A DNA stretch of 55,104 nt from Pseudomonadota bacterium (GTDB lineage Bacteria; Desulfobacterota; JADFVX01), in the NCBI GenBank assembly GCA_015222755.1, contig JADFVX010000064.1, forward strand, positions 1 to 55,104. Direction: 5' to 3'. Both the position numbers and the translations under genes were made by a program. How positions within the stretch are numbered: the first letter of the stretch is position 1; the number at the start of each line of letters is the position of its first letter. Below, one piece after another: positions 12,848-39,792 of this stretch. The notes below the pieces were generated by a model. That model saw only the letters and a program-made list of their open reading frames with translations. It did no database searches and was not told where the DNA came from.

Positions 12848-13065
12848 GGTAGGATCTATTTAGTCGCTTGGGGTTGAATTTCCCGTAGCTTGCCAGAGCA
12901 TGTCATTCCCGGCTTGGTCGGAAATCCAGAGATCAAATCCCCCCTAGCCCCTTTTTGCTAAAGAAGGGGCTGTGTGAAAATCATATCTAATCTGCTTTTA
13001 TCCGCACCCTGTCGGGCATAAGTTCTACTAACCTTCGCAATTGCTTAGAAAGTAGAGCTTTATGT

Positions 13066-19318: not shown

Positions 19319-19397
19319 GATTCCTCCTTGTTTTTAAATTTCGGAAAAAACAAAAACCGCATATTTGCAGCTAAGCAATACATAACTCCTCACCTAA

Positions 19398-19426
19398 ATT
19401 AAAGCATATCTTGATCAGGGTTGCAA
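19398..19426 (-). promoter_or_regulatory. Candidate sigma-70-type promoter for the 59-aa ORF (minus strand TTGCAA-17 nt-TTTAAT)
   Basis: Hexamers lie at 19421-19426 and 19398-19403. An equivalent TTGTAA-17-TTTATT sits at the same position relative to repeat copy B. Confidence 0.3.
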
Positions 19427-19492
19427 CTTTCTGATTGAAAGCTGCTACTATTCAAGGAAGGCCGATCTTTAGAACTACAGTAAGGAAGCATT
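19421..19492. repeat. 72-nt intergenic repeat, copy A (partner 24551-24622)
   Basis: Hand alignment gives 7 mismatches over 72 nt, same orientation. Weaker similarity extends about 20 nt further (AAAGCATATC / AAAACATATC). Confidence 0.8.
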
Positions 19493-24405: not shown

Positions 24406-24550
24406 AGTGGGAGTACTTTTATTATTTTTTATTATCTTATCATGTCGGAAATTAGAGGTAGAGCTTTAATTAAAGAGGCTGCTTCGACCTTGCCTGTTTT
24501 CAACATAAATTAAAAGGGACACGTTAAAATAAAACATATCTGGGAAGAGA

Positions 24551-24622
24551 TTACAACTTTCTGATTGAAAGCTAGCACTATTCAAGAAAGGCCGATCTTT
24601 AGAACTACAGGAAGGAAGAATT
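24551..24622. repeat. 72-nt intergenic repeat, copy B
   Basis: See copy A. It lies between the terminator of the DUF3999 gene and the start of 23413-24405. Confidence 0.8.
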
Positions 24623-24699: not shown

Positions 24700-26103
24700 T
24701 CATTCTGCTTCCTCGTTGTTGTCCTTGATTTGAAGTTGCCTGTATAATAAGATCGACATCCAGCCAATAACAAAAACACCGGCAAACATAATAGTCCAAA
24801 GAATATATTTTTTCCACGGCCATACAGACGGCAAGGGTTTTAATTGTTTTTCTCCACCAATGATAAATTCTGAAGAGTGTGTAAGCAGTCTGGGAGTAAT
24901 ATTTCTGCCTACACTTGCCTTGTATTTGTTTAGCAATGCATCGATATGGAAGCTTGTTGGCTCAACACTCCTGCTTCCATAGGCTATCTGGAAAGGGCCT
25001 GAACCCTGAGCTAGAAAAACAAGTCGTCTAGCTTGCCAGCCAAATTCCAGCACAGGGATACCATTTATTTCAGATTCACTCTCTTCCGTAACAATCATCC
25101 AATAACGTTGAGCTGTAGACCTGACAATTACAGGGGAATTGAATATCTGATCTCCTTTAAAATCGAGGTTGTAAACTAGTCCCCTCCAATGTTCTTTCAT
25201 TGGACCTTCCGAAGAGTCCCCAGATGATAATCTTAATCCTGCCATAGCATTATTTTCCGGCAAGCGAATTCTTATCCTGTCTACATGCAGGAAACCTTTG
25301 AGATCAACTAAGTACTTCCCCGGCTCACCAGACACAGGAATAACCTGCGGTGTCAGCCATCTTCTCGCCGGATTTTCCACAGTATTGCTTATACGCGATA
25401 CAAGAGCCACTTTTGTTAAATCAATTGGGGTTTGATCTGCTGCCCAGCTAAAACGCAGGTACTTGGCTTTGCAATTATTCAAGATTATCTTGTTTCTATC
25501 AAGCCGGTAGCCTTGATACCCTAGCCTTGCTACCGTTTCAGTGACAAGACTACGCCAATTAGTAAGATCATCACTCGAATCGACAATGATGATGCCAAAA
25601 AAGTCTGCTTCAGCGTCAGACCATGAGAGTTCAATTGCATAAATAGGTTCTTTGAGGGCGCTGGCATCTACAAGGTAGGAGAGTGTCTTTTCTTCTTTTG
25701 AAGCATCCCTTCGGCTAGGCGCTTTGACATCAACAATTGTGCCTTCCTCATTCTTTTCAACATGAACGGACAGGCCGCCAGTTTTATTATCCAGTTCCCC
25801 CTTTATAGGGAAAAAGGGCAAGTTTTTATAGATGATATCTTTCTGGCTGGTTATATTTCCCGGTCTGCGCAAGGCATGGGGTACTACCTGTCCGGAACCA
25901 TTAAAGACCCTGACATCCCCAAGATCACGGCGTGTTGTCTTTTGATATATCTCAAGAGGGATTTCTAATTCATAGAAGGCGTTGTCCCCGGAAACTTCCA
26001 GTTGCATGCCATAGGCAAACATCTCAGGCCTTGGCACCGTTTTGGCAAAAGACGTTCCTACAATCCCCAAAAAGAAAATAGATAAAATAAAATATTTTTT
26101 CAT
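24700..26103 (-). CDS. DUF3999-like protein (signal peptide, large periplasmic domain, C-terminal TM anchor)
   Basis: 467 aa. The N-terminal pattern F.YGM.LE......FYELEIPLEIY....R.DLGDVRVFNGSGQVVPHAL is as I recall for DUF3999. A 4-nt overlap (ATGA) links it to the upstream gene. Confidence 0.7.
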   Translation of the reverse strand: MKKYFILSIFFLGIVGTSFAKTVPRPEMFAYGMQLEVSGDNAFYELEIPLEIYQKTTRRDLGDVRVFNGSGQVVPHALRRPGNITSQKDIIYKNLPFFPIKGELDNKTGGLSVHVEKNEEGTIVDVKAPSRRDASKEEKTLSYLVDASALKEPIYAIELSWSDAEADFFGIIIVDSSDDLTNWRSLVTETVARLGYQGYRLDRNKIILNNCKAKYLRFSWAADQTPIDLTKVALVSRISNTVENPARRWLTPQVIPVSGEPGKYLVDLKGFLHVDRIRIRLPENNAMAGLRLSSGDSSEGPMKEHWRGLVYNLDFKGDQIFNSPVIVRSTAQRYWMIVTEESESEINGIPVLEFGWQARRLVFLAQGSGPFQIAYGSRSVEPTSFHIDALLNKYKASVGRNITPRLLTHSSEFIIGGEKQLKPLPSVWPWKKYILWTIMFAGVFVIGWMSILLYRQLQIKDNNEEAE

Positions 26104-28829
26104 TCTGCTTCCGCTGCCTCTTGAATGCGAGGGGGCATAGGTGCCAGATAGCCTATCAGGAGGCAGATACCACCGACTCCCATAAACGATACAATACGCT
26201 CCACCGTGCCTGTATTGGACAAATCGAATAGGAATAGCTTAATGACAACGATGCCTATAAGACCCGCACCTCCGATCCAAACATTTCGGACGCTTTTTCT
26301 TTTTCCCCATAGCATGACAGCAAAGGCCGACAGAGTCCAGAAAATGGACAGGGATGTCTGAACAAGATCAGAAGTCACCATGGATTGCAAGTTGAAGGAA
26401 ACGCCACCCCAGTAATGAAGGGTGCGGATGAGTATGGCATTTAACCATAAAAAAACCGTCGCCCCCATAGTTGCAAACAAGTGAATTCTGCTCAAGTTAA
26501 AGGGATAAATGCTAAATTCTTTATGGACTGCCAGAGCCCAGAAAAATATAGCAATCAGGACAAATGCCTGCGACAAATCAAGCGGATTAAGCAAGGGGGC
26601 ATAACTTATGGGCCAAGGGTCTCCCTTACTAAGGAGATTAATAAAGATTGTTCCCAGCCATAAGCAGGTCACTACAGGGACCAGTCCAGAATAAAGATAG
26701 GTCTTTTTATGTACAGATACCGGCCATGAGAGAGAGCAATGCCATTTACTGAGGAACATAACAAAGATTGCAGGCATAACACCCCAAGGAACAAGCCCCC
26801 AGATACCGCCACCCCTCACCATGTGGTCAGACCACCAGGCTATCTCCCAGGTAATCAAGGTAATGAGCGACAAGAAAGTTCCAAGGTGCAGGTACTTCAT
26901 CAGATTGGTGAAAGGACTTTCATCATCTTTGTACAATAGCCAGTATTGAATTATAAATACCAGGGGCCAGGCAGCGTAGCCACCGTAAACTGAGGGACGG
27001 CTGTTGAAATTAATTAAGGAATAGCCCCCCCCCAAAATCAAAATAGGTAGTATGATTTTATAAACATGCTTAAGCCTTCCCCAGTAAAGTTTTTCTCCGA
27101 CAACAAAACCTATAAGACCCGATATTGAGAAAAACGAAATTATATAAGCAAGCCTATAATTCGTGTGTACAAAGGCATCAATCTCATGGATGCCGCCCCC
27201 GAACCACCAGAGAAGTGCCCATCCCATTGCAAGAAGACTTTCAACATTGGCCGTCTCTATTTTTTCTCTTTGAAGATAAAGGCGGTAGCTACTGAAAAAA
27301 CCGGCAAGAGAAATCAACATACATCCAAGGAAGTATCCGTTGATCACGGCAATTATGCCACTTGGTTCTTTAATGGCGGATAGAAAGGCAAAGCCTGCCA
27401 AAACCTGTAGGAGGAGACCAAAAACTCGCGCCATCCCTCTTTGCCGTTTTATCGCTATCCAGACAATGGCCGAGCCCTCAAGCGCCCAGGCTGCGGAGGT
27501 CCACCGTCCATCAAGAGCTAGAGGGATTGCAACGGTTCCAAATACTACTCCCATGGCAAGAAAGGACTCTACAAGTGTGCGCATTGCATCGCTCCCCTTC
27601 TTAAATACCTGCCATGCCAGGGCAGCATACAAAGCGCCCATGACCAGGGCTGACCAAGCCAAACCGTATTCGTAAGGTTTTACAAGAACGGCCTGAAGGG
27701 CAAAACAAACCAAAGGTGTTCCGAATATAAGCGTGCAGTCAATATAACCCTTGTGCTGTAAAGGCTGATTGCTTGCGAAAAGAAGCCCGATAATCACGTA
27801 AAATATAAAGAAAAGAATTAGGAAAGGTTCCGTGCTTGCAAACATATCAGCTTGATAATTATTGCTACCCCAAATCAAACCGATACCAAAGGTAAAAATA
27901 AAACCAATGAGGTTAAGTTCCCGCCATGATTTATAGCGGGCAGTTAAAAGAATACCGCCGTTAAGTAGTGCGTAGTAAGTGAAAAGCATAACATGGTTAC
28001 CACTCCCAGTTGAAGTTAGTATGGGTGCTAGGAAACCGCCGCTTATACCTATAACAGCAAGGGACCGCGCATTCTGAATGATTGCCAGTGCCGCTGAGAA
28101 AACAGACAGCCCAACCAGCAGAGCAAGGGCTACCCCAAAGGGCACGAGTTGATAAAGCTTCATAGCAGCAAAGATAGTCAGGTAAAGAATCCCAACACCT
28201 CCGCCTTGGAGTATTAAGGCGTACTCCGGCATTTTCAAACGCAAGCGCCAGCCAAAAACCAACAAAGCTATTGCACCTATACATATAGAGACAAGTCTAA
28301 ACTCTATAGGAATAAGATTCCGTTCAATCGTATATTTCAGAAGAAAAGCAACGCCGAAAAATAAAACTATAATTCCTACCCTAACCACCACATTCCCACC
28401 GGTAAAATAGGAAAGAACAATGTTCCAGAGTTCCAATAGTGGATCTTTTCTATTAGGTGCTACAAATATGGATAAAGGTTCCACTTCGGGCTCACTCGGT
28501 TCACTATGAGTCACTGGGATGGTAATTGCCAACTCATCAATTTTTCCCGATACAGGTTCAAGCACCGGTTTAGCCGGCTCATAGCGAGTTGCCTCCAGTT
28601 CTTCTTCCTCAACTTTTTGTTCTTCTGCTACTATATGTGATTTTTGTACTGTTTTAAGCGCAGGCTGAATGTTTTTTTCAAGGCTTGCTATCTTTTTCTC
28701 AAGACGTACAAGCTTCGATATAAGAAAAGCTATTAAGCCGCCTGTAATAGCACCCAGTAAAAAATGACTACGCGATTCGAAAAGCATCACACCGAGAATC
28801 ACACCGATTATCAAGTTTACAAAGGTCAT
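26100..28829 (-). CDS. DUF2339-like very large polytopic membrane protein (>20 predicted TM helices, N-terminal coiled-coil)
   Basis: 909 aa, almost entirely hydrophobic helices after an N-terminal TM + coiled coil + acidic linker. It pairs with a DUF3999-like gene. Confidence 0.7.
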   Translation of the reverse strand: MTFVNLIIGVILGVMLFESRSHFLLGAITGGLIAFLISKLVRLEKKIASLEKNIQPALKTVQKSHIVAEEQKVEEEELEATRYEPAKPVLEPVSGKIDELAITIPVTHSEPSEPEVEPLSIFVAPNRKDPLLELWNIVLSYFTGGNVVVRVGIIVLFFGVAFLLKYTIERNLIPIEFRLVSICIGAIALLVFGWRLRLKMPEYALILQGGGVGILYLTIFAAMKLYQLVPFGVALALLVGLSVFSAALAIIQNARSLAVIGISGGFLAPILTSTGSGNHVMLFTYYALLNGGILLTARYKSWRELNLIGFIFTFGIGLIWGSNNYQADMFASTEPFLILFFIFYVIIGLLFASNQPLQHKGYIDCTLIFGTPLVCFALQAVLVKPYEYGLAWSALVMGALYAALAWQVFKKGSDAMRTLVESFLAMGVVFGTVAIPLALDGRWTSAAWALEGSAIVWIAIKRQRGMARVFGLLLQVLAGFAFLSAIKEPSGIIAVINGYFLGCMLISLAGFFSSYRLYLQREKIETANVESLLAMGWALLWWFGGGIHEIDAFVHTNYRLAYIISFFSISGLIGFVVGEKLYWGRLKHVYKIILPILILGGGYSLINFNSRPSVYGGYAAWPLVFIIQYWLLYKDDESPFTNLMKYLHLGTFLSLITLITWEIAWWSDHMVRGGGIWGLVPWGVMPAIFVMFLSKWHCSLSWPVSVHKKTYLYSGLVPVVTCLWLGTIFINLLSKGDPWPISYAPLLNPLDLSQAFVLIAIFFWALAVHKEFSIYPFNLSRIHLFATMGATVFLWLNAILIRTLHYWGGVSFNLQSMVTSDLVQTSLSIFWTLSAFAVMLWGKRKSVRNVWIGGAGLIGIVVIKLFLFDLSNTGTVERIVSFMGVGGICLLIGYLAPMPPRIQEAAEAE

Positions 28830-28914
28830 AATTCCACCATCCCTCTCATTGGTTAATCGGACAAAATGTCTTTAAAAGATCAATCCCCTCGCTAGACATT
28901 AAAATCCCCAAAAC

Positions 28915-28950
28915 AAAAAAGCCCGTCGCAGTAGATAACTGCTTCGGGCT
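28915..28950 (-). terminator. Duplicate copy of the ABC-F terminator hairpin
   Basis: The minus strand reads GCCCGAAGCAG-TTATCTA-CTGCGACGGGC followed by TTTTTT. It is homologous to 34048-34085. Confidence 0.5.
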
Positions 28951-29102
28951 TTCAAATTCTTCAAACTGTTTTTTCAAAACCACTCCCCCCTTACCCCCCC
29001 ATTAGAACCAGCAATTACCAAATTGAACGACAACTCTATCTTACATCCCCCAGATTTTCAAACACTTTTTTGACTGCGTTAGCAATTTACGCCCATTAAA
29101 AA

Positions 29103-29282
29103 CTAATTTTCTGATGCCTCTTTAATAGCCTCCAGTCCCTCCCATCTTTTATAGGCCCTGGCAAGAGTCTCTTCTGTTTCTTCCACTTCAGCCTTAAGAC
29201 CTGCGACCTTCCCGCTCTGCTGGTATATCTCAGGGTCGGCCATTAGCTTATAGAGTTCCTCTTTTTTTGCATCAAGGGACAT
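29103..29282 (-). pseudogene. Remnant of an ABC-F ATPase C-terminus (59 codons), diverged duplicate of the 3-prime end of 34213-35991
   Basis: It translates to MSLDAKKEELYKLMADPEIYQQSGKVAGLKAEVEETEETLARAYKRWEGLEAIKEASEN*. The intact gene ends ...LDAKKEELYKLMADPAIYQQSGKVAELNAEAEETEETLARSYKRWEELEAIKEASEK*. Confidence 0.8.
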
Positions 29283-29297
29283 CCAGGAGAGCAGCTA

Positions 29298-31358
29298 TTA
29301 ACTTTCGCCAGATTTAAGTCCGGTAATTTCATAGATCATAACAGACTGGTCCTTCCCCTTAACCTTTACCGGCTCTATTTCTTTAAATCTCGCATGTGCA
29401 ATTAAATCTCCTTTTAAATCATCAGGCCCCTGGGGCTGCTCGTCTGTGGCCAGAAGATGTTTTATCTTGTCATAGGTGAACTCTGTAATCAGTATATGGT
29501 CATTATAGACACGGGTTAAGGCCTCAACCCGTGCACCGAGATTGACATGATCACCGATGATGGTATAGTCCATCTTTTTCCCCTCGGCCCCTATATTTCC
29601 TATCAAAACCTCTCCGCTATTTACCCCTATTCCTATGTCGAGGGGCTCTTTGCCCTCTGTCTTCCATTTCTCCTGTAGGGCAGCCAGCCTGTCCATCATA
29701 TTAAGGGCACATCTAACTGCCAACTCAGCGTGGTTTTCCTGGGGTAGGGGCTCTCCCCAAAAGGCCATTATCTCATCTCCGACAAACTTATCCAGCGTTC
29801 CATCCCACCTGAAGACAACCTTGGTCATTTCAGCCAGATACTCATTAAGGATAGGCACAACCTCTTCGGGACTCCTCTTTTCCGAATATGTTGTAAATCC
29901 CCTTATATCCGAGAAAAGGACGGTGACTTCACTTCTATGCCCCCCCAGCTTAGCCATTTCCGGGTGGTCAACCAGCTCATTGACGACCCTTTCGGTGACA
30001 TAGCTTGAAAACATATTCCTTATATCCTTTGCCTTCCTCTCCTCAGTGAAAAAACGGTATGTTGTAATCGTTGAATAAAGGAGAAATATGTTGAAAGAGG
30101 GGAGGAGCAACCCCATCCACAAGCGGTAGCGTATAAGCAGGTACTGTATCAGGAAGAGATAGACAAGCAATAAGATAGCAGACAGCAGAACCCCTCCGCC
30201 AGCCCGCAGCCTCGGCAGGCTAAGCCCCATGATCAGTCCACACACAATAATCGCAGCTATTTCCAGAAGTTTTGTGCCTTCCTCCTTACGAAGAAAGTTA
30301 TTTTTGAGGAGGTTCTCGATAACGGTGGCCTGCTTCTCAATACCATGAAGCTGGGCAAAGGGGGTAATGTGGGTATCTGTTGTACCAAAGGCGGTGGCAC
30401 CAACAAGGACGATCCTGCCCTTAAGAGTGTCGGCAGCCAGCTTCCCCTCCATAAGGTCTGAGGCAGAGTAATCAGGGAAAGTGCCGGTCCTGCCGGCATA
30501 GTTTATAAGGGCTCTCCCAGACTCGTCCGTTGGAACAAAGTTCTCCCCCATCATGATACCCTCACCCAGGCTAAGGCTCAGCTCACTCCGATCAAGACCG
30601 AGGTAGTGCCTCACCACTTCTATGCCGAAGGATGGATAATAAAACTCCTCCAGCTTTACATACAAGGGCTCCCATCTTATGGCGCCGTCCCTCTCGTAAT
30701 AGGTATAGGCATGCCCCATTGACTGTGCACTGGAAATCAGCTCTTCGATAGGGATGATCGCCCTGTTTGCAACAATAGGCATGTTAAGCACACCTTCCCT
30801 GACTATCATAAAGGGGTAGTCGTAGACATGGTCGGGGACCTCGGAGAGGCTGGACTCTTCATAGATGGTCGGAACGTCCATAACAAAACCCAGTATCACA
30901 TTTTCCGCCTTTTCTATACTATTGGCAAGCCTGGCATCGGCATTGTCCTCCTCGCCCCGCCTTGCCAGAGATTCCTCAAAGGCCCTATCCCTGACCTTCA
31001 GCCTTCCGTAATCACTTTTAATAGCGTCTATGACCTTTGATGTTTCTGTAATCTGCGGCTCCGCAAACAATACATCGACACCTATCGTCTTTGCCCCCCC
31101 TTCAGATATCCTTTCTATCAGGGTGGCAAACTTATCCCTGGGCCAGGGCCACCTTCCGACCTTTTTCAGGCTTTCATCATCTATGGCAACGATGACTATA
31201 TCTTTTCCGGGATCACGCTCCCCTCTCAGCATAAGCCTGAAATCAAAGGCCTTGGCCTCAAGAAGCTCTATAAAGAGCGGTGTCTTGACAGCCAAGGCTG
31301 CAGATAGGACTACACAGAGGAAGGCGATCAGGTAACAGTTCTTTTTGGAAGGCTTCAC
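29298..31358 (-). CDS. CHASE2 sensor domain-containing class III adenylate/guanylate cyclase
   Basis: Layout is an N-terminal TM, a ~330-aa periplasmic CHASE2-like domain, 3 TM segments, then a cyclase domain (VTVLFSDIRGFT...GDEIMAFWG...GVNSGEV). GTG 31358 is preceded by GGGAGGG; the ORF-track ATG 31397 has no RBS. Confidence 0.88.
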   Translation of the reverse strand: MKPSKKNCYLIAFLCVVLSAALAVKTPLFIELLEAKAFDFRLMLRGERDPGKDIVIVAIDDESLKKVGRWPWPRDKFATLIERISEGGAKTIGVDVLFAEPQITETSKVIDAIKSDYGRLKVRDRAFEESLARRGEEDNADARLANSIEKAENVILGFVMDVPTIYEESSLSEVPDHVYDYPFMIVREGVLNMPIVANRAIIPIEELISSAQSMGHAYTYYERDGAIRWEPLYVKLEEFYYPSFGIEVVRHYLGLDRSELSLSLGEGIMMGENFVPTDESGRALINYAGRTGTFPDYSASDLMEGKLAADTLKGRIVLVGATAFGTTDTHITPFAQLHGIEKQATVIENLLKNNFLRKEEGTKLLEIAAIIVCGLIMGLSLPRLRAGGGVLLSAILLLVYLFLIQYLLIRYRLWMGLLLPSFNIFLLYSTITTYRFFTEERKAKDIRNMFSSYVTERVVNELVDHPEMAKLGGHRSEVTVLFSDIRGFTTYSEKRSPEEVVPILNEYLAEMTKVVFRWDGTLDKFVGDEIMAFWGEPLPQENHAELAVRCALNMMDRLAALQEKWKTEGKEPLDIGIGVNSGEVLIGNIGAEGKKMDYTIIGDHVNLGARVEALTRVYNDHILITEFTYDKIKHLLATDEQPQGPDDLKGDLIAHARFKEIEPVKVKGKDQSVMIYEITGLKSGES

Positions 31359-31517
31359 TACACCCTCCCAGGCTGAGAGGATGCAGTCGCCGTGCATGCA
31401 GAATGAAAAATAAATTGTTTAAACATCGGAAATCAACATAGCTTAAGGTATATTCCGCTTAATAATGACAAAAGATATTATGTTGTAAACTATAGCTTCT
31501 TACATCATATCAGCCTA

Positions 31518-32345
31518 CTACACTGGTGATTCAAGTGGCGGTTCTTCAACGGGTGGTTCCGGTTCCAGTATCTCCGGGTAGGTATCTGTTACAGGGGGGC
31601 TTACAGGAGGCACAGCAAATCCAGGTTCACTAATTATTTGCGGGCCGCCACGGGGAACTCCCAGTTCTTCCGGAGACAAGTGCTGGTCATCTTTAACAGG
31701 GGAGGTATCTCTAAGGTGGGGAATCAGCTCTTCAAGCCTAACACGCCGCGGCGGCGTAGGGGGGCGGTTAGCAGGTACGCTCGTCCCCATCATCGGTCCC
31801 AGTATAACCTCCCCGGCAATACCGGGCTTAACATTCCTGACAGCAACACTCCCCCTCAGGACCATCTCTTCTGTTGAAAGGGGAAGAGGATTTATAATAT
31901 TGAGCCAGTCTGTCCCTCTTACAATAGCCACAGCGGTAGGCGTTTCAACCTCAAAGCGGGAACCTTCACCGGCAAACTCCTCAGGCACTATGGCCCTAAA
32001 TTTACCCCTGAAACTCCTGAGAAGTACCGTCCTCTTATTCCGGGCGGTATCAATGTCAAACGCCTTTATCTCTATCCTCGATTTCTGCGCAATATTCAGC
32101 TTTGTGCCGTCTGTAAAGGTTAACTGCGCCCTGGACTTGCTCTTGGTCCTGAGTATATCACCAGTATTAAGGCCATCCCCCAGGTTGAGTAGAATTGCCC
32201 TCTCTGCGCCCAGCTTCAGGACATCTACATCCCCTCTCATAAAGGTCAGCTTTGCCACCACCTCAGCCATAGAAAACTCCGGCAGGGCTGCAATAATAAA
32301 TGCAGCAATTATCATACTGTATATCTTGGCCCTGTTTCTTATCAT
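31518..32345 (-). CDS. FecR-domain periplasmic protein with a Pro-rich C-terminal extension
   Basis: It has a signal/anchor segment and a FecR-like beta region (GDVDVL......L..GD.L..GD.L.T...S.A.L.F.DG). The last ~90 aa are Pro/Glu-rich (PPTPP...PEPPVEEPP). Confidence 0.8.
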   Translation of the reverse strand: MIRNRAKIYSMIIAAFIIAALPEFSMAEVVAKLTFMRGDVDVLKLGAERAILLNLGDGLNTGDILRTKSKSRAQLTFTDGTKLNIAQKSRIEIKAFDIDTARNKRTVLLRSFRGKFRAIVPEEFAGEGSRFEVETPTAVAIVRGTDWLNIINPLPLSTEEMVLRGSVAVRNVKPGIAGEVILGPMMGTSVPANRPPTPPRRVRLEELIPHLRDTSPVKDDQHLSPEELGVPRGGPQIISEPGFAVPPVSPPVTDTYPEILEPEPPVEEPPLESPV

Positions 32346-32367
32346 CGCTTTCCCCTTTGATTAAATA

Positions 32368-33771
32368 TTAAAAAACGGCCTCCACACTGACACCAAAAAT
32401 CCGCCTGTCATAATCATAAACGCTAATGTTAGAGTCAGCTTTGCTGTATGTATATACTAATTTCAAAACAAGGTTTTCATGTTTGTATTTTAGAGATGAG
32501 TTCAGGGCATAAATCCTGTCACGCCTCTTCTTGGCAAATGTAGTGTGTATATTTTTATAGTTCTTATGGTAATAACCGCCGTTAAGATTCAAGCTTAAAC
32601 GGTTGGCAAGCGGATACTTAAGCATTATACCGCCCTTGTTCCCCCTGCTTTCCCAGTTGGCTCCGTCTGTATTGCTCTTATCAAAGCTGTACTTAATCTG
32701 CAGAGTACCTCCTTTATCGCCATATGAAACAAGATATCCCAGGCCAAAATTTAAATTTGTTCCATCTCTATCTTCATATTGGTTAAGAGGGGTTCTCAAA
32801 AAGTCTCTTGATGCTACACCAGCTGTAAAGTTCAGCCAGCTTTTATTTCCAAGGGAATGGGTATATAAGGGCCTCAGACTCAGCACCTCAAGATAGCCAC
32901 CTGAATCTACGGTATAATGCTCATAGCCGGCCATCAAGCTAAGCGTCCCTTTCCCTGTCTTTTTTGAGGGGGTCAATGAAATACGGTGCCCCTGCACATC
33001 CAGTTCCTTAAGATCATCATGGATACTCTGGTAAAAAGAATAGTTGGTTTTTATAGCAAAGTTATCAAAAGAAGTTGAATAATCCAATCTTGCGCTTATT
33101 ACGGACCTTCCATCACTTTCATTGCTTATATCGACGCCGGGAACATCATGTGATGGTTTTAGCATTACATTATCATCGTACTGGTACGAATAAGCCAGGC
33201 CCAGCTTTAAGCGCCCTTTTCCTTTTTTGATCGATTCCTTTGCTTTCCTGGCAAGAGTTGCCGCTTCAGACCCGGGCTCAGAGGCTATCAGGCTGTTTAG
33301 TTTACTTTTACCCCGGATTTTATGGCCTTTACTTAAGTGAACAAGCCCCTTCAGGTAGCTTATTTGAGATGAACTCACCCCTTTCTCCTTGGCCTTTAAC
33401 AGCAATTCCTCCAGTTCATTTCTAGCATTGGTAGCATAGAGAACTTCTCCCAGGTGCCCATAAGTCTTTTCTATAGATGGATCAAGCAATAGTGCCTTGT
33501 TTAGATATACTTTAGACTGCTGATAATCGAGTGTCTCTTTATAGGCAAGACCAATATGGAGTGCAGTTGAAGCAGAAGCAGGATCTGCATCAAAGGCATG
33601 CAACAAAGCAGGAATGGCCTCCTCGTAGTTTTCATTTTTAAAGTCAGCAAGCCCCGTCTCTAGAGAGGCCCCCTCACTAGCGTATGAGACCTTAGCACCG
33701 AGAAATACCGAGGCAACAAAAAATAGAAATAAGCTTAGCAGAAGATTGGCAGAAAAACCCCTATTCATCAT
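32368..33771 (-). CDS. Outer-membrane protein: N-terminal TPR region + C-terminal predicted beta-barrel (DUF560/Slam-like architecture)
   Basis: AAGGAGG RBS and a signal peptide are present. TPR-like helices span about aa 35-190. Alternating-hydrophobic strands then run to the terminal ...VEAVF (aromatic C-terminal residue). Confidence 0.6.
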   Translation of the reverse strand: MMNRGFSANLLLSLFLFFVASVFLGAKVSYASEGASLETGLADFKNENYEEAIPALLHAFDADPASASTALHIGLAYKETLDYQQSKVYLNKALLLDPSIEKTYGHLGEVLYATNARNELEELLLKAKEKGVSSSQISYLKGLVHLSKGHKIRGKSKLNSLIASEPGSEAATLARKAKESIKKGKGRLKLGLAYSYQYDDNVMLKPSHDVPGVDISNESDGRSVISARLDYSTSFDNFAIKTNYSFYQSIHDDLKELDVQGHRISLTPSKKTGKGTLSLMAGYEHYTVDSGGYLEVLSLRPLYTHSLGNKSWLNFTAGVASRDFLRTPLNQYEDRDGTNLNFGLGYLVSYGDKGGTLQIKYSFDKSNTDGANWESRGNKGGIMLKYPLANRLSLNLNGGYYHKNYKNIHTTFAKKRRDRIYALNSSLKYKHENLVLKLVYTYSKADSNISVYDYDRRIFGVSVEAVF

Positions 33772-34047
33772 ATTTCCTCCTTATAAATTAACCATTGCCC
33801 AATTACATATTGAAAAAACGTAAAATTAAATCCATTATTGACAAACTACAGTGGCCCTCGGGCACAAAACAACGAGCGGAACAAACCGGATCAGCGACTA
33901 TACTTGCATTATCTCTCAATCCAAAACAAAAAGATACACCGCCTTTTCAGACGCAACAAGCAGCATGTAGGTATTCACAGGATTGTTTAGTGATGATCGC
34001 AGGATTTGGAAATGGGAGGGGAATAGGGACAGATGCACTAGCTCAAA

Positions 34048-34085
34048 ACAAAAAAGCCCGGTGCAGTAAAATACTGCTTCGGGCC
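34048..34085 (-). terminator. Rho-independent terminator of the ABC-F gene
   Basis: The minus strand reads GCCCGAAGCAG-TATTTTA-CTGCACCGGGC followed by TTTTTT. Confidence 0.65.
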
Positions 34086-34212
34086 TTCAAATACTTACCA
34101 TTAGAACTACAAGGCTCAAGCTCTAAGGGCATAAAGTTCCACTTTCTGAGCTTGAGAAGATTAGTGGAACTTATACCCGGCAGGTGTATAAATTCCAATT
34201 GTTTTTTTAAAG

Positions 34213-35991
34213 CTACTTCTCTGATGCCTCTTTGATGGCCTCCAGTTCCTCCCACCTTTTATAGGACCTGGCAAGTGTCTCTTCTGTCTCTTCCGCTTCA
34301 GCATTAAGCTCGGCGACCTTCCCGCTTTGCTGGTATATCGCAGGGTCGGCCATTAGCTTATAGAGCTCCTCTTTTTTTGCATCAAGGGTCTCGATCTGCC
34401 CGGGCAGTTCATCGAGTTCTGTTTTTTCCTTAAAGCTCAGCTTACGGGGCTTCTTATTTTGCTGGCCGGACTTTGCACCCGCTTTCGCCTTTGTCTTGCC
34501 CTTTGCCTTCCGCTGCCTCAGCCAGTCATCGTAACCGCCGATATACTCTTCCACCCTCTCTTCACCTTCAAATACCAGGGTGCTGGTGACTATATCGTTG
34601 ATAAAGCTGCGGTCGTGGCTTACCAGGAGCAGAGTCCCGGTGTAATCTATGAGCAGTTCTTCCAGCAGGTCCAAAGTCTCCATGTCGAGGTCGTTGGTAG
34701 GTTCGTCCATGACTATCATGTTGGAGGGCTTTGTAAAGAGTTTGGCGAGAAGAAGCCTGTTGCGCTCTCCGCCGGAAAGCACCTTTACGGGGCTTCTCGC
34801 CCTGTCGGGGGTAAAGAGGAAGTCCTGCAGGTAGCCTATTATATGTTTAGGCTTGCCGTTGATGATGACCTGATCGTTACCTTCACCCACGTTTTCCTGC
34901 ACCGTCTTGTCCTCGTCAAGCTGCGAACGGAGCTGGTCGAAGTATGCTATGTCGAGCCTGGTTCCCAGCTTAACTTCCCCTGAGAGCGGCTCTAGCTGGC
35001 CCAGCAGGGTCTTTAAGAGTGTCGTCTTTCCCGCACCGTTTGGGCCTATGATGCCTATCTTGTCGCCGCGCATGATAAGCGTTGAAAGATCGCGGGCCAC
35101 TACCTTGTCTCCGTAACCGCAGGTGACACCTTCCGCCTCGACGACAATCCTGCCGGACTTCCTTGCATCCTGGAGCTTCATGCTTACGCTGCCCGTCTGT
35201 GTGCGCCGTGCCTGTTGCTCCTCGCGCATCTTTTTAAGTGCCCTGACGCGTCCCTCGTTGCGGGTACGCCTTGCCTTTATCCCCTTTCTTATCCAGACCT
35301 CCTCTTCGGCAAGTTTTTTGTCGAAGCGGGAATTCTGGCTCTCCTCGGCCTCAAGCATGGCGTCTCTGCGCTCCAGATAGGAGGGGTAGTCACAGTCCCA
35401 GTTTATCAGCCTGCCCCTGTCGAGTTCTACGATACGTGTTGCCAGCCGCTGGAGGAAGGCCCTGTCATGGGTGATAAATAGTAGAGTGCTGCCGTAGCGG
35501 ATGAGGAAATCTTCCAGCCATAGGATGGAGTCGATATCGAGGTGGTTTGTCGGTTCATCGAGGAGCAGGAGGTGAGGTTCGGTGACAAGCCCACGGGCAA
35601 GCAGCACCCGGCGCTTCAGCCCTGCCGAGAGATTGGCAAAGGGGGCGTCTCCATCGAGAGACATCCTGGAGAGCAATTTTTCTATGCGCTGTTGGTCTTC
35701 CCAGTTGTACTCTTCATCCAGTGCTTCGGCGATTACCTCCGAGACGCTGCCCTCCAGTCCCTTTGGCACTTCCTGGGACAGGGAGGCGACGCGCAGCCCC
35801 TGCTGGCGGACTATCTCACCTCCATCGGGTACGAGCAGTCCCTCGACCAGCTTGAGGAGTGTAGATTTGCCGGCACCGTTACGGCCGAGTATGCAGACGC
35901 GCTCCCCCTCTTCGATTTGAAGCGTTGTCCCGTCGAGTAGTGGTGCCCCGCCGAAGCCGAGGCGGATATCTTGCAGACTGATAAGTGCCAT
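34213..35991 (-). CDS. ABC-F family ATPase (Uup-like, two NBDs + C-terminal coiled coil, no TM domain)
   Basis: Two Walker A motifs (GRNGAGKST, GPNGAGKTT), two signature motifs and two Walker B motifs (LLLDEPTNHLD, IVMDEPTNDLD) are present. Confidence 0.9.
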   Translation of the reverse strand: MALISLQDIRLGFGGAPLLDGTTLQIEEGERVCILGRNGAGKSTLLKLVEGLLVPDGGEIVRQQGLRVASLSQEVPKGLEGSVSEVIAEALDEEYNWEDQQRIEKLLSRMSLDGDAPFANLSAGLKRRVLLARGLVTEPHLLLLDEPTNHLDIDSILWLEDFLIRYGSTLLFITHDRAFLQRLATRIVELDRGRLINWDCDYPSYLERRDAMLEAEESQNSRFDKKLAEEEVWIRKGIKARRTRNEGRVRALKKMREEQQARRTQTGSVSMKLQDARKSGRIVVEAEGVTCGYGDKVVARDLSTLIMRGDKIGIIGPNGAGKTTLLKTLLGQLEPLSGEVKLGTRLDIAYFDQLRSQLDEDKTVQENVGEGNDQVIINGKPKHIIGYLQDFLFTPDRARSPVKVLSGGERNRLLLAKLFTKPSNMIVMDEPTNDLDMETLDLLEELLIDYTGTLLLVSHDRSFINDIVTSTLVFEGEERVEEYIGGYDDWLRQRKAKGKTKAKAGAKSGQQNKKPRKLSFKEKTELDELPGQIETLDAKKEELYKLMADPAIYQQSGKVAELNAEAEETEETLARSYKRWEELEAIKEASEK

Positions 35992-36066
35992 TAATTTTCT
36001 CTCATAAAAAGTGTAGTGGAACTAAACACCTGGTTTGTAAGGGGCTTGTATAATATAGATTTAAGG

Positions 36067-37053
36067 CTATGATGCGACTGCCTGGCAGCGACCCTTGTCC
36101 TTTGCCTTGTAAAGCCTCTGATCGGCAATATCGACAAGATCGCTCCAAGTGGCATTTGCCTTTTCTTCAATCTCACAGCAGTTTCCGATACCTATACTTA
36201 TGGTGAGTACCTTAAAAGAGCTTTTTTCGTGAGGGATTTTAAGTGACTGAACATCTTTAACAATCTCTCCCGCTTTTAAGGCCGTATCCTTAAGCCCTGT
36301 TTCAGGCATCAGAAGCAGGAATTCCTCTCCCCCATAACGGTAGAGCCTGTCTGCCTCGCGTATGATAAATTCTATGCGATTGGCCACTTTTTTCAGCACG
36401 TCATCTCCTGCAAGGTGACCGTAATGATCATTGTAATTTTTAAAATAGTCTATATCGATGAGCATTACCGAATAGTGAAACTGGTAGCGCGTGGCTGAAG
36501 CGTGAGTATGTTGCAGATCCACTTCCATTGCCCTGCGATTGCCGATACCAAGTAGTGCATCTTCCATTGATAGAGCCTTCAACTCTTTGTTTGCCCGGAT
36601 TAATTCCCGGGTTCGCTCATCTATAGATGTTTCTACTATCTCCCGTTGATGTTCGTAGAGATTGAAGTGAGCTTTTACAAGGTCGGACTGTGTGACAATC
36701 CCGACAATCCTGCCGTCGGGATTAATAACCGGAAGGTGGCGCACTTTTTCTGCCCTGGCTACAACCAGGGCCTCAAAAAGGGTATCGCTTTCGTTAACTG
36801 TAACAGGTGGGCTTGACATCACATCTGAAATTATTGTGGTAGCTGGTGAAATAGGTGGGCTATGATCGGCCATCAGTTTTACAATGTCCCGCTCTGTGAG
36901 GATCCCCACCGGTTTCTCTTCTTCACTGATTACGATACATGAAAAGCGCTTGTCCCGCATGATTAGTAGAGCTTTCCCCAAGGTCTCGCCAGGGGCAACG
37001 CAGTAAACCTTTTTGGTCATAAGGTTTTGAATGCCGGTAGATATATTTTTCAT
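36067..37053 (-). CDS. CBS-pair + GGDEF diguanylate cyclase
   Basis: Two CBS motifs, a coiled-coil linker and a GGDEF domain with an intact RYGGEEF are present. ATG 37053 has a better RBS than 37077. Confidence 0.88.
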   Translation of the reverse strand: MKNISTGIQNLMTKKVYCVAPGETLGKALLIMRDKRFSCIVISEEEKPVGILTERDIVKLMADHSPPISPATTIISDVMSSPPVTVNESDTLFEALVVARAEKVRHLPVINPDGRIVGIVTQSDLVKAHFNLYEHQREIVETSIDERTRELIRANKELKALSMEDALLGIGNRRAMEVDLQHTHASATRYQFHYSVMLIDIDYFKNYNDHYGHLAGDDVLKKVANRIEFIIREADRLYRYGGEEFLLLMPETGLKDTALKAGEIVKDVQSLKIPHEKSSFKVLTISIGIGNCCEIEEKANATWSDLVDIADQRLYKAKDKGRCQAVAS

Positions 37054-37199
37054 GAAGGCCCCTTGAGATAAAGACATGAATTATATCATATTTCAAGGGG
37101 TGTTGCTAGGCAGGTGCAGGCCATCTCGTCCAAAATTTTTTGACGGGGGAGAGGGAACTAAGGCCATTTAGTTACAAAACAAAGATTAGAACTCTTGCT

Positions 37200-37535
37200 T
37201 TAATCAAGGGCGCACTCTTCGCAGAAAAACTCATCTGGTGATTCGGTCAGGCGTTCCATGGCAATGGGTTTTGCGCAGTCAACGCAGATACCATAATCAG
37301 GGGCATCGATACGTTTAACGGTGGCTTCAAGGCGCGGTATCCTTGCAATGGCAGCCCTCATCTCCGCCTCGCAGCGCCTTTTGTAGTCCAGAGACTCACG
37401 GCGTGTAGCGCTGTCCATCTCGCTGTCAGGCGGTATCTGGCCTACTGAAAACTCCAGTGCAGAAATCCTTTCCTGCAGCGCCTCAAGCTCTGCGAGGGTT
37501 TTTTGTTTCAGGCTTTTTCTTTCATCATCCGTCAT
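37200..37535 (-). CDS. DksA/TraR-family C4 zinc-finger protein
   Basis: 111 aa with a coiled-coil N-terminus and CVDC-x17-CEEC. Confidence 0.8.
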   Translation of the reverse strand: MTDDERKSLKQKTLAELEALQERISALEFSVGQIPPDSEMDSATRRESLDYKRRCEAEMRAAIARIPRLEATVKRIDAPDYGICVDCAKPIAMERLTESPDEFFCEECALD

Positions 37536-37608: not shown

Positions 37609-39792
37609 TTATATTTTTTCCAGGTTGGCGTATTTAAGGACCAGGTTTTTCAGCCCGATCCTCGGGAAATATACAGAGACCTTGGCCTTGTCGCCTGTCC
37701 CTTCTCCCCCACGAACCACTCCTTCGGCAAATGTGGGATGGCGCACCTTGTCGCCTTTGTTATAGCCTCCTGCCGCTTCCCCCCTTGCGGCACCCGACTC
37801 ATCAAAACCTGCTCCCGCCAGACCGCCTTTGACAGTCTTATTTTCCTGGAAGGATACAGCTGTCTTATTGCTGAATATGGGAGCAAAGTCGGGCACGATG
37901 TTCAGGTTTTTAGTCAATCCTTCCGGAATGTCACTCAGGTAGCGTGAGGGGAGGTTGTGCTGGTCTGATCCGAATACGCGCCGCCTGTCGGCATGGCTCA
38001 GGTAAAGCCGCTCCATCGCCCTAGTCATCCCTACATAGCAGAGCCGCCTCTCCTCTTCCAGCCCTTCAGGGTCGTCCTTAGAGCGGCTGTGGGGGAAGAG
38101 GTTCTCCTCCATGCCTGCCATGAAGACTACTGGAAACTCAAGCCCCTTAGCACCGTGAAGAGTCATAAGCGTGAGTCGCTCCTCCTGGTCATCAAGCTTG
38201 TCCGCCTCGCTCATCAGCACGGCCCTTTCAAGAAATGCCTCTATGCTGAAGTCCTCCTCCTCGCCTGCTTGCTCCCGAATGGCCTCTTCAAGCTCTTCAA
38301 GGTTTTCAATGCGGCTTCTGTTCTCGATAGTTTTTTCTTCCTTAAGTTTTTTCAGATAGCCGCTTTTTTCTATCACCTTCTCAAGCAGTCCTACGGGGTC
38401 AAGCTCGTCTTTGAGGGAGATAAGTTCTTCCATCATGGCCCGGAAGGCGACTACTTTTTTATTATTCTCTTCCCTCTCTACGGCCCGATAGATAGAAAAG
38501 CCATTGGTTATGGCACTCTCCTCCAGCTCCTCTATGGTTTTCTTCCCTATGCCCCTTGGCGGGGTGTTGATTATCCTCTTCATTGCCACAGTATCATCGG
38601 GATTTATGATGACACGGAGGTAGCCCAGAATATCCTTGACCTCCATACGGTCGTAGAACTTCATGCCTCCGACAACGGTGTAGCTTATACCCCGCTTTAC
38701 CAGTTCGTCCTCTATGACCCTCGACTGGGAGTTGGTGCGATAGAATATGGCAAAGTCCTTAAGTCCCCTGTTCTCTGTCTGGTGGAGGGAGCTTATCTCA
38801 TCGATGATGAAACGGGCCTCTTCATATTCATTGCCAGTACGGCATATAGTCAGCGGCTCTCCCTCACTCCCCTCGGTCCATAGTTCCTTGCCTTTTCTGC
38901 CCAGATTTTTTTCCACAACGGCGCCTGCAGCAGAGAGTATCCGCTGTGTGGAGCGGTAGTTCTGTTCCAGCCTTACAATGTGTGCACCGGGGAAATCCCG
39001 CTCGAAATCAAGGATGTTCTGGATGTCGGCACCACGCCAGCGATATATAGACTGGTCGTCATCGCCGACGACGGTTATATTCATGGTCTTTCCGGCCAGC
39101 AGTTTGATCAGCTGGTACTGCACGGGGTTTGTGTCCTGGTATTCATCTACGAGTAGGTATCGCCATTTTTCACGGTATGTCTCCAGCAGGTCGGGGCATT
39201 CATTGAAGAGGCGGACTGTGAGATAGATGAGATCGCCAAAGTCGAGGGCATTACCCTCCTTAAGGAGCTTGCCATATGACTCTACGACGGTGACGATTTT
39301 TTCCTTGAAAAACCCGAAGGATGTGCGGGCCGAATCGACAGGGGGCACTCCCCTGTTTTTCGCATCGTTTATTATGGATTGTATCCGCTTAGGGTTGATG
39401 GCCTTTTCATCCAGGCCTTCCCGGTCCAGTATTGTCTTGATAGCAGAAATCTGGTCACGATCATCGTATATGGCAAAGCTGGAGCTGTAGCCGATGCGGT
39501 CTATATGCCGTCGCAGAATGGCGGCACAGATGGCGTGGAAGGTTCCGACGGAGAGCTCAGCGCCGCCGCTTCCAAGGAGTTCCTTTATCCTCTCTCGCAT
39601 CTCCCCTGCCGCCCTGTTGGTAAAGGTAACGGCCATGATGTTCCAGGGGCTGACCTCCTTTTTTTCGATTAGGTAGGCTACGCGATAAGTAATTACCCGT
39701 GTCTTGCCGCTTCCTGCCCCGGCAAGTATGAGCAGGGGGCCATCACCGTATGTTGCAGCCTCGTATTGTTTTTCGTTGAGAGAATCTATCAT
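37609..39792 (-). CDS. uvrD: ATP-dependent DNA helicase UvrD/PcrA
   Basis: SF1 motifs AGAGSGKT, TFTNRAA, VDEYQDTN and a C-terminal Tudor-like tail are present. 727 aa. Confidence 0.92.
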   Translation of the reverse strand: MIDSLNEKQYEAATYGDGPLLILAGAGSGKTRVITYRVAYLIEKKEVSPWNIMAVTFTNRAAGEMRERIKELLGSGGAELSVGTFHAICAAILRRHIDRIGYSSSFAIYDDRDQISAIKTILDREGLDEKAINPKRIQSIINDAKNRGVPPVDSARTSFGFFKEKIVTVVESYGKLLKEGNALDFGDLIYLTVRLFNECPDLLETYREKWRYLLVDEYQDTNPVQYQLIKLLAGKTMNITVVGDDDQSIYRWRGADIQNILDFERDFPGAHIVRLEQNYRSTQRILSAAGAVVEKNLGRKGKELWTEGSEGEPLTICRTGNEYEEARFIIDEISSLHQTENRGLKDFAIFYRTNSQSRVIEDELVKRGISYTVVGGMKFYDRMEVKDILGYLRVIINPDDTVAMKRIINTPPRGIGKKTIEELEESAITNGFSIYRAVEREENNKKVVAFRAMMEELISLKDELDPVGLLEKVIEKSGYLKKLKEEKTIENRSRIENLEELEEAIREQAGEEEDFSIEAFLERAVLMSEADKLDDQEERLTLMTLHGAKGLEFPVVFMAGMEENLFPHSRSKDDPEGLEEERRLCYVGMTRAMERLYLSHADRRRVFGSDQHNLPSRYLSDIPEGLTKNLNIVPDFAPIFSNKTAVSFQENKTVKGGLAGAGFDESGAARGEAAGGYNKGDKVRHPTFAEGVVRGGEGTGDKAKVSVYFPRIGLKNLVLKYANLEKI

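Follow-up and report, generated by a model that had tools for sequence, protein, structure and literature searches.

Displaced ('orphan') 3′ gene ends, for which homology-facilitated illegitimate recombination (HFIR) has been proposed, are found in Rhs and contact-dependent inhibition (CDI) loci and in the effector-immunity arrays of the Vibrio cholerae type VI secretion system (T6SS) (PMC5361080), and the mechanism of this recombination has been described (PMC3240628). In such loci the 5′ part of a gene is constant, a new 3′ end is inserted together with its cargo, and the old 3′ fragment is displaced downstream in the same orientation, with no integrase involved. Here, we describe a locus that shares these traits in a 55,104-nucleotide (nt) stretch of DNA, hereafter the window, from an uncultured lineage of Desulfobacterota. 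The window is the whole of one contig (JADFVX010000064.1, our contig C18) of a 1.9-Mb metagenome-assembled genome (MAG, GCA_015222755.1) with 142 contigs and 86% completeness. In it, a three-gene signalling cassette lies between the intact end of an ABC-F gene and a silent second copy of that end, hereafter the remnant.

The locus also differs from orphan 3′ ends in several respects. Indeed, the gene is a housekeeping ABC-F translation factor and not a polymorphic toxin, the remnant stands alone where others form arrays, a signalling cassette makes up the cargo, and the event appears to be old and fixed in the clade, with neither an empty site nor a donor identified. Genomic islands bordered by attL and attR in a gene 3′ end have the same layout, with an intact gene end, the cargo and a truncated duplicate end as direct repeats. 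Unlike these islands, the locus has no integrase or excisionase, its repeat lacks a short identical core in otherwise diverged flanks, and presence/absence polymorphism was not seen in the relatives sampled. Expressed genes that evolve in concert with a silent partial copy are exemplified by Neisseria pilE/pilS and Brucella omp2a/omp2b. As in these pairs, copies within a genome are closer than orthologues, private variants are common to both copies in short tracts, and the silent copy is the likely donor to the live gene; here, however, only one remnant of 183 nt exists, a cytoplasmic protein is targeted, and the exchange comes without evidence of selection or programming. Finally, a tandem duplication followed by partial loss would also be head-to-tail, with a junction joining the end of the unit (the cyclase stop) to an internal point of the ABC-F gene, but here the cassette genes of a second copy have left no trace.

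Altogether, we consider it probable that the remnant is an old displaced gene end of single origin, which was later trimmed and gene-converted, with exchange between species. The locus documents a multi-gene envelope-signalling module fixed beside a housekeeping gene, and it suggests that a gene fragment of less than 200 nt can persist across speciation and can return sequence to the live gene through conversion. The mechanisms are all known ones and our understanding of ABC-F proteins and CHASE2 cyclases is unchanged; the locus is a neat though unexceptional instance of genome evolution.

The repeated ABC-F gene end

The features that make up the repeat and the cassette are the following:

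34213-35991, minus strand: intact Uup-type ABC-F gene, 592 amino acids (aa), with two ABC_tran domains, ABC_tran_Xtn and ABC_tran_CTD (Pfam)
34206-34388, minus strand: repeat copy B, the last 59 codons, TAG stop and 7 further nt of the live ABC-F gene (repeat search, alignment, self-BLAST)
34301-34340, minus strand: 40-nt patch of the ABC-F gene in which 10 substitutions are private to the window, 7 of them shared with copy A (29191-29230)
32368-33771, minus strand: cassette gene 1, TPR and outer-membrane beta-barrel protein (Pfam TPR, SlipAM, DUF2860, BBP2_2)
31518-32345, minus strand: cassette gene 2, FecR-domain protein (Pfam FecR)
29298-31397, minus strand: cassette gene 3, CHASE2 class III nucleotidyl cyclase (Pfam CHASE2, Guanylate_cyc)
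29279-29297, minus strand: 19-nt junction that separates the remnant from the cyclase stop (a TAA with an in-frame TAG after it), as read from the sequence; it differs per lineage
29096-29278, minus strand: repeat copy A, the silent remnant of the ABC-F 3′ end (repeat search; orthologous shorter remnants in the relative contigs L113, L118, L119 and L114, see below)

Repeat search and alignment showed that the two copies form a gap-free direct repeat of 183 nt with 89.6% identity (19/183 positions differ) and a spacing of 5110, which extends 7 nt beyond the TAG stop common to both copies. In a self-BLAST of the window, a check proposed in the preliminary description of this DNA, the pair was the strongest internal repeat (E=6e-65). 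That description, made from the letters alone, had noted a recurrence of 168 nt; the recurrence is borne out and is longer. The homology stops at 29278/34388, as had been indicated, and 19 nt remain to the cyclase stop codon at 29298-29300. A homology reaching into that stop codon was considered and rejected, as only ~8/14 bases agree past 29280.

Copy A contains no indel and keeps the frame and stop position of the ABC-F gene. Over the shared codons, 18 nt differences lead to 8 amino-acid changes, and the suggested comparison of synonymous with nonsynonymous changes gave dN=0.064 and dS=0.32 (Nei-Gojobori, NG86), that is a dN/dS of ~0.2. The cassette thus lies between an intact gene end and a truncated, displaced duplicate of it in the same orientation, as had been described and as HFIR or a Campbell-type integration would leave it. 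Pfam annotation of the three bracketed genes found no integrase, transposase, tyrosine or serine recombinase or excisionase, which supports the earlier statement that the cassette carries no integrase or transposase.

Remnants behind the cyclase in related lineages

We compared the window with five metagenome contigs of relatives, L113 (14.4 kb), L114 (16.4 kb), L115, L118 and L119, at 83-90% nt identity to it; a protein search returned three ABC-F proteins at 90-91% identity and cyclases at 89-92%. In L113 and L114 the gene order is uvrD, zinc finger (dksA-like), ABC-F, TPR/barrel, FecR and cyclase, and the order is the same in L115, L118 and L119 as far as those shorter contigs extend. Relatives in which the cassette lies next to an ABC-F homologue, whose existence had been surmised, are therefore at hand. 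An exact-sequence look-up of the window ABC-F found no entry on record, and a scan of metagenome contigs with ABC-F gave a best match of 59% identity, dominated by generic ABC motifs. L120, a 48-aa cluster member, was set aside because it has no nucleotide similarity to the locus.

A remnant of the ABC-F 3′ end lies immediately 3′ of the cyclase in all four relatives whose contigs extend past the cyclase stop (L113, L118, L119 and L114). Its length is 183 nt in the window, ~100 nt in L113, L118 and L119, and ~66 nt in L114, and these three lineage types have three different cyclase-remnant junctions. All remnants end at the same 3′ boundary, occupy the same position directly behind the cyclase and carry an A-specific base (CTCT, against CACT in every live copy). 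Furthermore, L118 and L114 have in common the downstream flank motif TGACCCAT...TTATCAGC. The shared boundary, the CTCT base and the common flank motifs point to orthologous remnants with a single origin. The presence of remnants in these four contigs also means that the scar predates the split of these species-level lineages and that the arrangement is not an insertion confined to the window genome, as the import suggested in the preliminary description would imply.

The L113-type junction resembles a deletion that ran from TTAAnAGCTG, at the end of the cyclase, to TTAAGGCTG, inside a remnant like that of the window. Since the window remnant is also the longest, its state looks ancestral. The C-terminal tail of the cyclase varies with the junction: it reads TGLKSGES* in the window (29298-29330), TGLKSSQVKS* in L113 (13625-13653) and TGLEDD* in L114 (16140-16154), and the L113 cyclase stop codon sits in sequence derived from the ABC-F remnant. 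Judging from these sequences, the cyclase-remnant junction has been remodelled repeatedly, and the joint that was first formed is no longer preserved.

The relatives also bear on a possible assembly artefact, in which the MAG contig would be chimerically joined or would contain a repeat that was collapsed or duplicated. The MAG is fragmented and incomplete, and L119 starts within copy B and terminates within copy A, a sign that assemblers break at the repeat. We nonetheless give this explanation next to no credence: the 19 differences are not those of a collapsed duplicate, both copies are flanked by unique sequence, and L113 and L114, which are independent assemblies from other samples, each span the gene end, the cassette and the remnant in one contig.

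More distant cassettes, in outgroups whose cyclase is ~65% identical, consist of TPR/barrel, FecR, DUF1565/NosD and cyclase genes and lie in unrelated contexts without ABC-F. Their fourth gene (DUF1565/NosD, ~400 aa) is found between FecR and the cyclase, at 8747-9943 of contig L116 and 8761-9963 of contig L117. The window clade has only a 120-nt spacer there (31398-31517), so this gene was presumably lost.

Probable gene conversion, mosaic history and origin of the remnant

If the two copies of one old duplication had merely drifted apart, the distance from a remnant to the ABC-F end of its own genome would be expected to equal or exceed that to foreign ones. In the window, copy A differs from copy B at 17/176 positions (9.7%) and from foreign B copies at 16.5-17.6%, and copy B differs from its orthologues at 13.6-17% (binomial p=0.004). 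In L114, copies A and B differ at 3/65 positions (4.6%), with an identical run of ~45-49 nt, against ~18% expected and found to foreign copies (p=0.0014). The remnants of L118 and L119 share base variants in GGTGGG, CTTGAG and CCAT motifs with the ABC-F copies of their own lineage (L115, L119), the T of CTTGAG being unique to the L115/L118/L119 lineage. Copies within a genome are thus closer than orthologues in the window and L114, though not in L113, and lineage-private variants common to both copies cluster in tracts. The similarity within each remnant is a mosaic and not uniform.

Recurrent independent partial duplications in each lineage, for instance by repeated excision and re-integration of the cassette through the ABC-F 3′ end, could also produce a high similarity to the own genome in the window and L114, and would account for remnants that vary in length and 5′ junction. 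This seems unlikely to us. Indeed, the 3′ boundary and the position right behind the cyclase are common to all lineages, the A-specific marker and the downstream flank motifs recur across lineages, the L113 remnant lies 18% from its own gene, and a uniform similarity would be expected in place of the mosaic.

A single old remnant with later conversion is also consistent with the private sites of the window ABC-F gene. When the window is set against three agreeing orthologues, 56 window-private sites are found in the 1779 nt of the gene, and the patch at 34301-34340 is their densest cluster; other lineages have at most 3-6 private sites per 40 nt. On an unrooted ABC-F tree the window is closest to L114 (11.8%, against 14.6-15.0% to the others), so that the private changes map to the window's own branch. 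At the protein level the patch changes SAKLAEIQDEVEE into SGKVAELNAEAEE; about six residues of the C-terminal coiled coil there set the window ABC-F protein apart from its three orthologues. This patch is most simply read as a short tract of conversion that involved the remnant and the gene, since ten point changes in 40 nt of a conserved gene would otherwise be hard to explain; the direction was probably from the remnant to the live gene. Conversion would have reset the divergence between the copies, so the 10% difference is not a clean distance between donor and recipient.

Conversion also bears on the function of the remnant. An ATG at 29282-29280 opens a 59-codon frame over it, and the translation matches PF16326 ABC_tran_CTD at 4.8e-12 (Pfam). 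A small functional gene, in which a stand-alone 59-aa ABC_tran_CTD coiled coil is translated downstream of the cyclase, would agree with this match, with the intact frame, the ATG, the common stop and the lack of indels, and with the dN/dS of ~0.2; in L113, moreover, an ATG directly after the cyclase TGA opens a 27-codon frame. We regard this as extremely improbable, as no Shine-Dalgarno sequence precedes the ATG of the window and the frame is not conserved, being cut to 27 codons in L113-type lineages and without a start codon in L114. The low dN/dS is accounted for by conversion from a selected gene and does not require a functional remnant; these values are expected if the divergence arose in, or was copied from, such a gene. 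No sign of expression of the remnant was found either. We therefore take the remnant to be, in all likelihood, a non-functional scar that has stayed recognisable through conversion. In annotation, it should be flagged as a pseudogene fragment.

It seems unlikely that the remnant has been retained as an integrase-free recombination handle and as a silent donor that occasionally rewrites the ABC-F C-terminal coiled coil. If this were true, the remnant and the live ABC-F end would be two conserved homology arms for the signalling cassette, which could then be exchanged between related species, or looped out by RecA, with the ABC-F gene undamaged.

The backbone and the cassette have different affinities. 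We counted three-taxon informative sites at which the window agrees with L113 or with L114:

uvrD: 128 with L113, 206 with L114
ABC-F body: 94 with L113, 143 with L114
FecR: 58 with L113, 53 with L114
cyclase: 144 with L113, 77 with L114

The ABC-F body differs from FecR and cyclase taken together (chi-square p=6e-7), and the maximum chi-square breakpoint falls at 34236-34243, inside copy B. ABC-F and uvrD thus group the window with L114 and the cassette groups it with L113, so a later homologous exchange between these species broke at or near the ABC-F gene end. Within the cassette, the barrel half of the TPR/outer-membrane protein gene (32460-33260) is 91-94% identical to L113 and 60-68% to L114, whereas identity to L114 is 85-93% in the cassette parts on either side; this barrel portion appears to be hypervariable or replaced by recombination between lineages.

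This mosaic is also what could be cited for a recent insertion in the window lineage alone, in which the ABC-F 3′ end, the terminator and the cassette of a relative were imported into a site where ABC-F adjoined DUF2339. Such an import would explain why the cassette is closer to L113 and ABC-F/uvrD closer to L114 with a breakpoint at the ABC-F 3′ end, and it would fit the 10% difference between the copies and the DUF2339/DUF3999 genes found behind the remnant in the window genome only. We consider it very unlikely. The remnants already in place in 4/4 relatives with sequence past the cyclase largely refute it; the window remnant is nearer to its own copy B than to any foreign copy, the opposite of what is expected of a native and an imported copy; and no relative has ABC-F beside DUF2339. 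What the breakpoint supports of the import by recombination that had been suggested is therefore an allelic exchange after the scar had formed, rather than the event that produced it.

For an old displaced remnant, which remains our preferred explanation, the following course of events can be proposed. The remnant would go back to one event in an ancestor common to the sampled species-level lineages, which number at least five. The cassette would at that time have ended up with the ABC-F gene on one side and a second copy of at least the last 183 nt of that gene on the other. In a first route (a), a one-sided homologous recombination with an illegitimate join, or the single-crossover integration of a circularised fragment (Campbell-type), would have brought in DNA with an ABC-F 3′ end, terminator and cassette and pushed the resident 3′ end downstream. 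In a second route (b), a tandem duplication of ~5 kb, from inside ABC-F to the cyclase end, would have been followed by the loss of most of the second copy. The preliminary description had excluded an in-situ tandem duplication because the copies have diverged, an argument that fails for an old event. Both routes fit equally well, and they cannot be separated since no empty site was found. Later, deletions may have shortened the remnant from its 5′ side in the other lineages, and RecA-type short-tract gene conversion would have swapped patches and kept the copies more alike within than between genomes. In the window lineage, the live gene probably received an old patch of the remnant by conversion. 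Finally, homologous exchange between related species would have given the cassette and the ABC-F/uvrD backbone their different histories. Of this course, the repeat, its occurrence in relatives, the distances, the private-site cluster and the mosaic are observed, and the mechanism of origin, the direction of conversion and the lack of function are inferred.

Several observations weigh against this reconstruction. First, an ABC-F gene lacking the cassette was not found: all close-relative contigs that reach the position (L113, L114, L115, L118 and L119) contain the cassette, and we thus infer the insertion from the scar alone. In family-level relatives (ABC-F at 69-75% aa identity), a tblastn of nine window proteins found no shared neighbours in the ABC-F neighbourhoods, so that an empty site could not have been found there. 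Second, the L113 remnant gives no conversion signal (18% from its own gene, 19% from foreign ones), and the conversion statistics are modest, as they derive from short sequences (65-176 nt) and from only five lineages. The direction of conversion is argued from the private-site cluster and from a weak microhomology argument (TTAAnAGCTG / TTAAGGCTG). Third, a highly divergent spacer and barrel segment of L114 (60-68% identity) inflates the breakpoint statistic. The discordance between backbone and cassette nonetheless persists in the well-aligned parts.

Dispersed elements, flanks and neighbouring genes

Four short intergenic elements lie next to the two copies:

34130-34188, minus strand: element Y, with at least 10 further genome copies and unrelated to X (own-assembly search)
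34044-34096, minus strand: T element behind the live ABC-F gene, whose position is kept in L113, L115 and L119
28999-29075, minus strand: element X, which with T forms an X-T unit (own-assembly search)
28909-28961, minus strand: T element behind the remnant, a member of a dispersed family

The T elements are 53-nt hairpins with a T-run, which form a direct repeat of 87% identity in the repeat search. They fold at -21 to -25 kcal/mol (ViennaRNA) into an interrupted stem of 5+5 bp followed by TTTTTTGTTTTG; a consensus terminator scan did not detect the hairpin, because of its internal loop. A search of the whole assembly found T copies on contigs C125, C106, C67, C119, C87 and C53, and X copies on C51, C119, C68 and C67. 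In this one genome T thus occurs at at least 8 loci, X at at least 5 and Y at at least 10. The remnant-side T is 92% identical to the copies on C125 and C106 and 88% to the ABC-F-side T.

These results separate the two parts of the preliminary description. The gene-end repeat stands. The hairpin, which had been included in the duplication as its terminator, does recur but, being a dispersed repeat, does not support the duplication independently. Between gene end and hairpin, the sequence that had been called more diverged is in fact non-homologous, with the dispersed elements X at copy A and Y at copy B. The original duplication may have included an X-T unit with the gene end, if the ancestral ABC-F flank was X-T: the unit, of ~165 nt, also occurs on C67 and behind the ABC-F gene of L114. 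As the unit is dispersed, such an ancestral flank cannot be demonstrated. The repeated hairpins should be annotated as a dispersed family.

Further small intergenic repeat copies lie at 13008-13064 of the window, C67:2651-2811, C125:75-127 and C106:9847-9898, among others. The genome is rich in such elements, with at least three families (T, X and Y) and with X and T paired at several loci. Rfam gave only chance-level matches over 28700-34500. Another direct repeat of the window, 98 nt long and 84% identical (19395-19492 and 24525-24622), has a spacing of 5130, close to the 5110 of the gene-end repeat and the 5135 of the hairpins. We judged this resemblance a coincidence, since the sequences are unrelated and the 98-nt pair belongs to a dispersed family with copies also on C57, C118 and C108.

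The genes around the repeat and the cassette, all on the same strand, are:

37609-39792, minus strand: uvrD
37200-37535, minus strand: dksA/traR-type zinc-finger open reading frame (ORF)
36067-37077, minus strand: CBS-GGDEF (diguanylate cyclase) gene
26100-28829, minus strand: DUF2339 gene
24700-26103, minus strand: DUF3999 gene

The order on the minus strand is thus uvrD, dksA/traR-type ORF, CBS-GGDEF, ABC-F, TPR/beta-barrel, FecR, CHASE2 cyclase, remnant, DUF2339 and DUF3999.

What follows the remnant is variable: an opposite-strand gene is found there in L113 and L118, and only in the window genome does the DUF2339/DUF3999 pair take this place. This pair (24700-28829) has no close database orthologue, while ABC-F and the cyclase have relatives at ~90% aa identity; a search for DUF2339 homologues gave a best match of 59% aa identity and one partial match of 77% (L121), which has an unrelated upstream gene and no remnant. 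A native adjacency of ABC-F and DUF2339, implied in the preliminary description, is hence not shown, as the flank differs in L113 and L118 and no close DUF2339 orthologue was found among the sampled relatives. It may be that this lineage alone acquired the pair, and that the site behind the remnant is a variable spot. The opposite-strand gene, ending in ...WYRYASPYMKTHKLTWLSGISEEIQKNNKVN, lies at L113:13771-14442 and L118:2714-3085 and has no counterpart in the window MAG, which is 86% complete.

On the other side, the CBS-GGDEF gene (36067-37077, in a gap at 35995-37209) is not present in L113, L114 and L115, where the zinc-finger ORF and ABC-F lie 60-140 nt apart, and it looks like a one-gene insertion specific to the window lineage. 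The GC profile gave 50-57% for ABC-F and 42-50% for the cassette, with no sharp island signature. Finally, homologues of the window proteins carry the labels Deltaproteobacteria or Thermodesulfobacteriota, and those of ABC-F are labelled 'subfamily F protein uup' by JGI.

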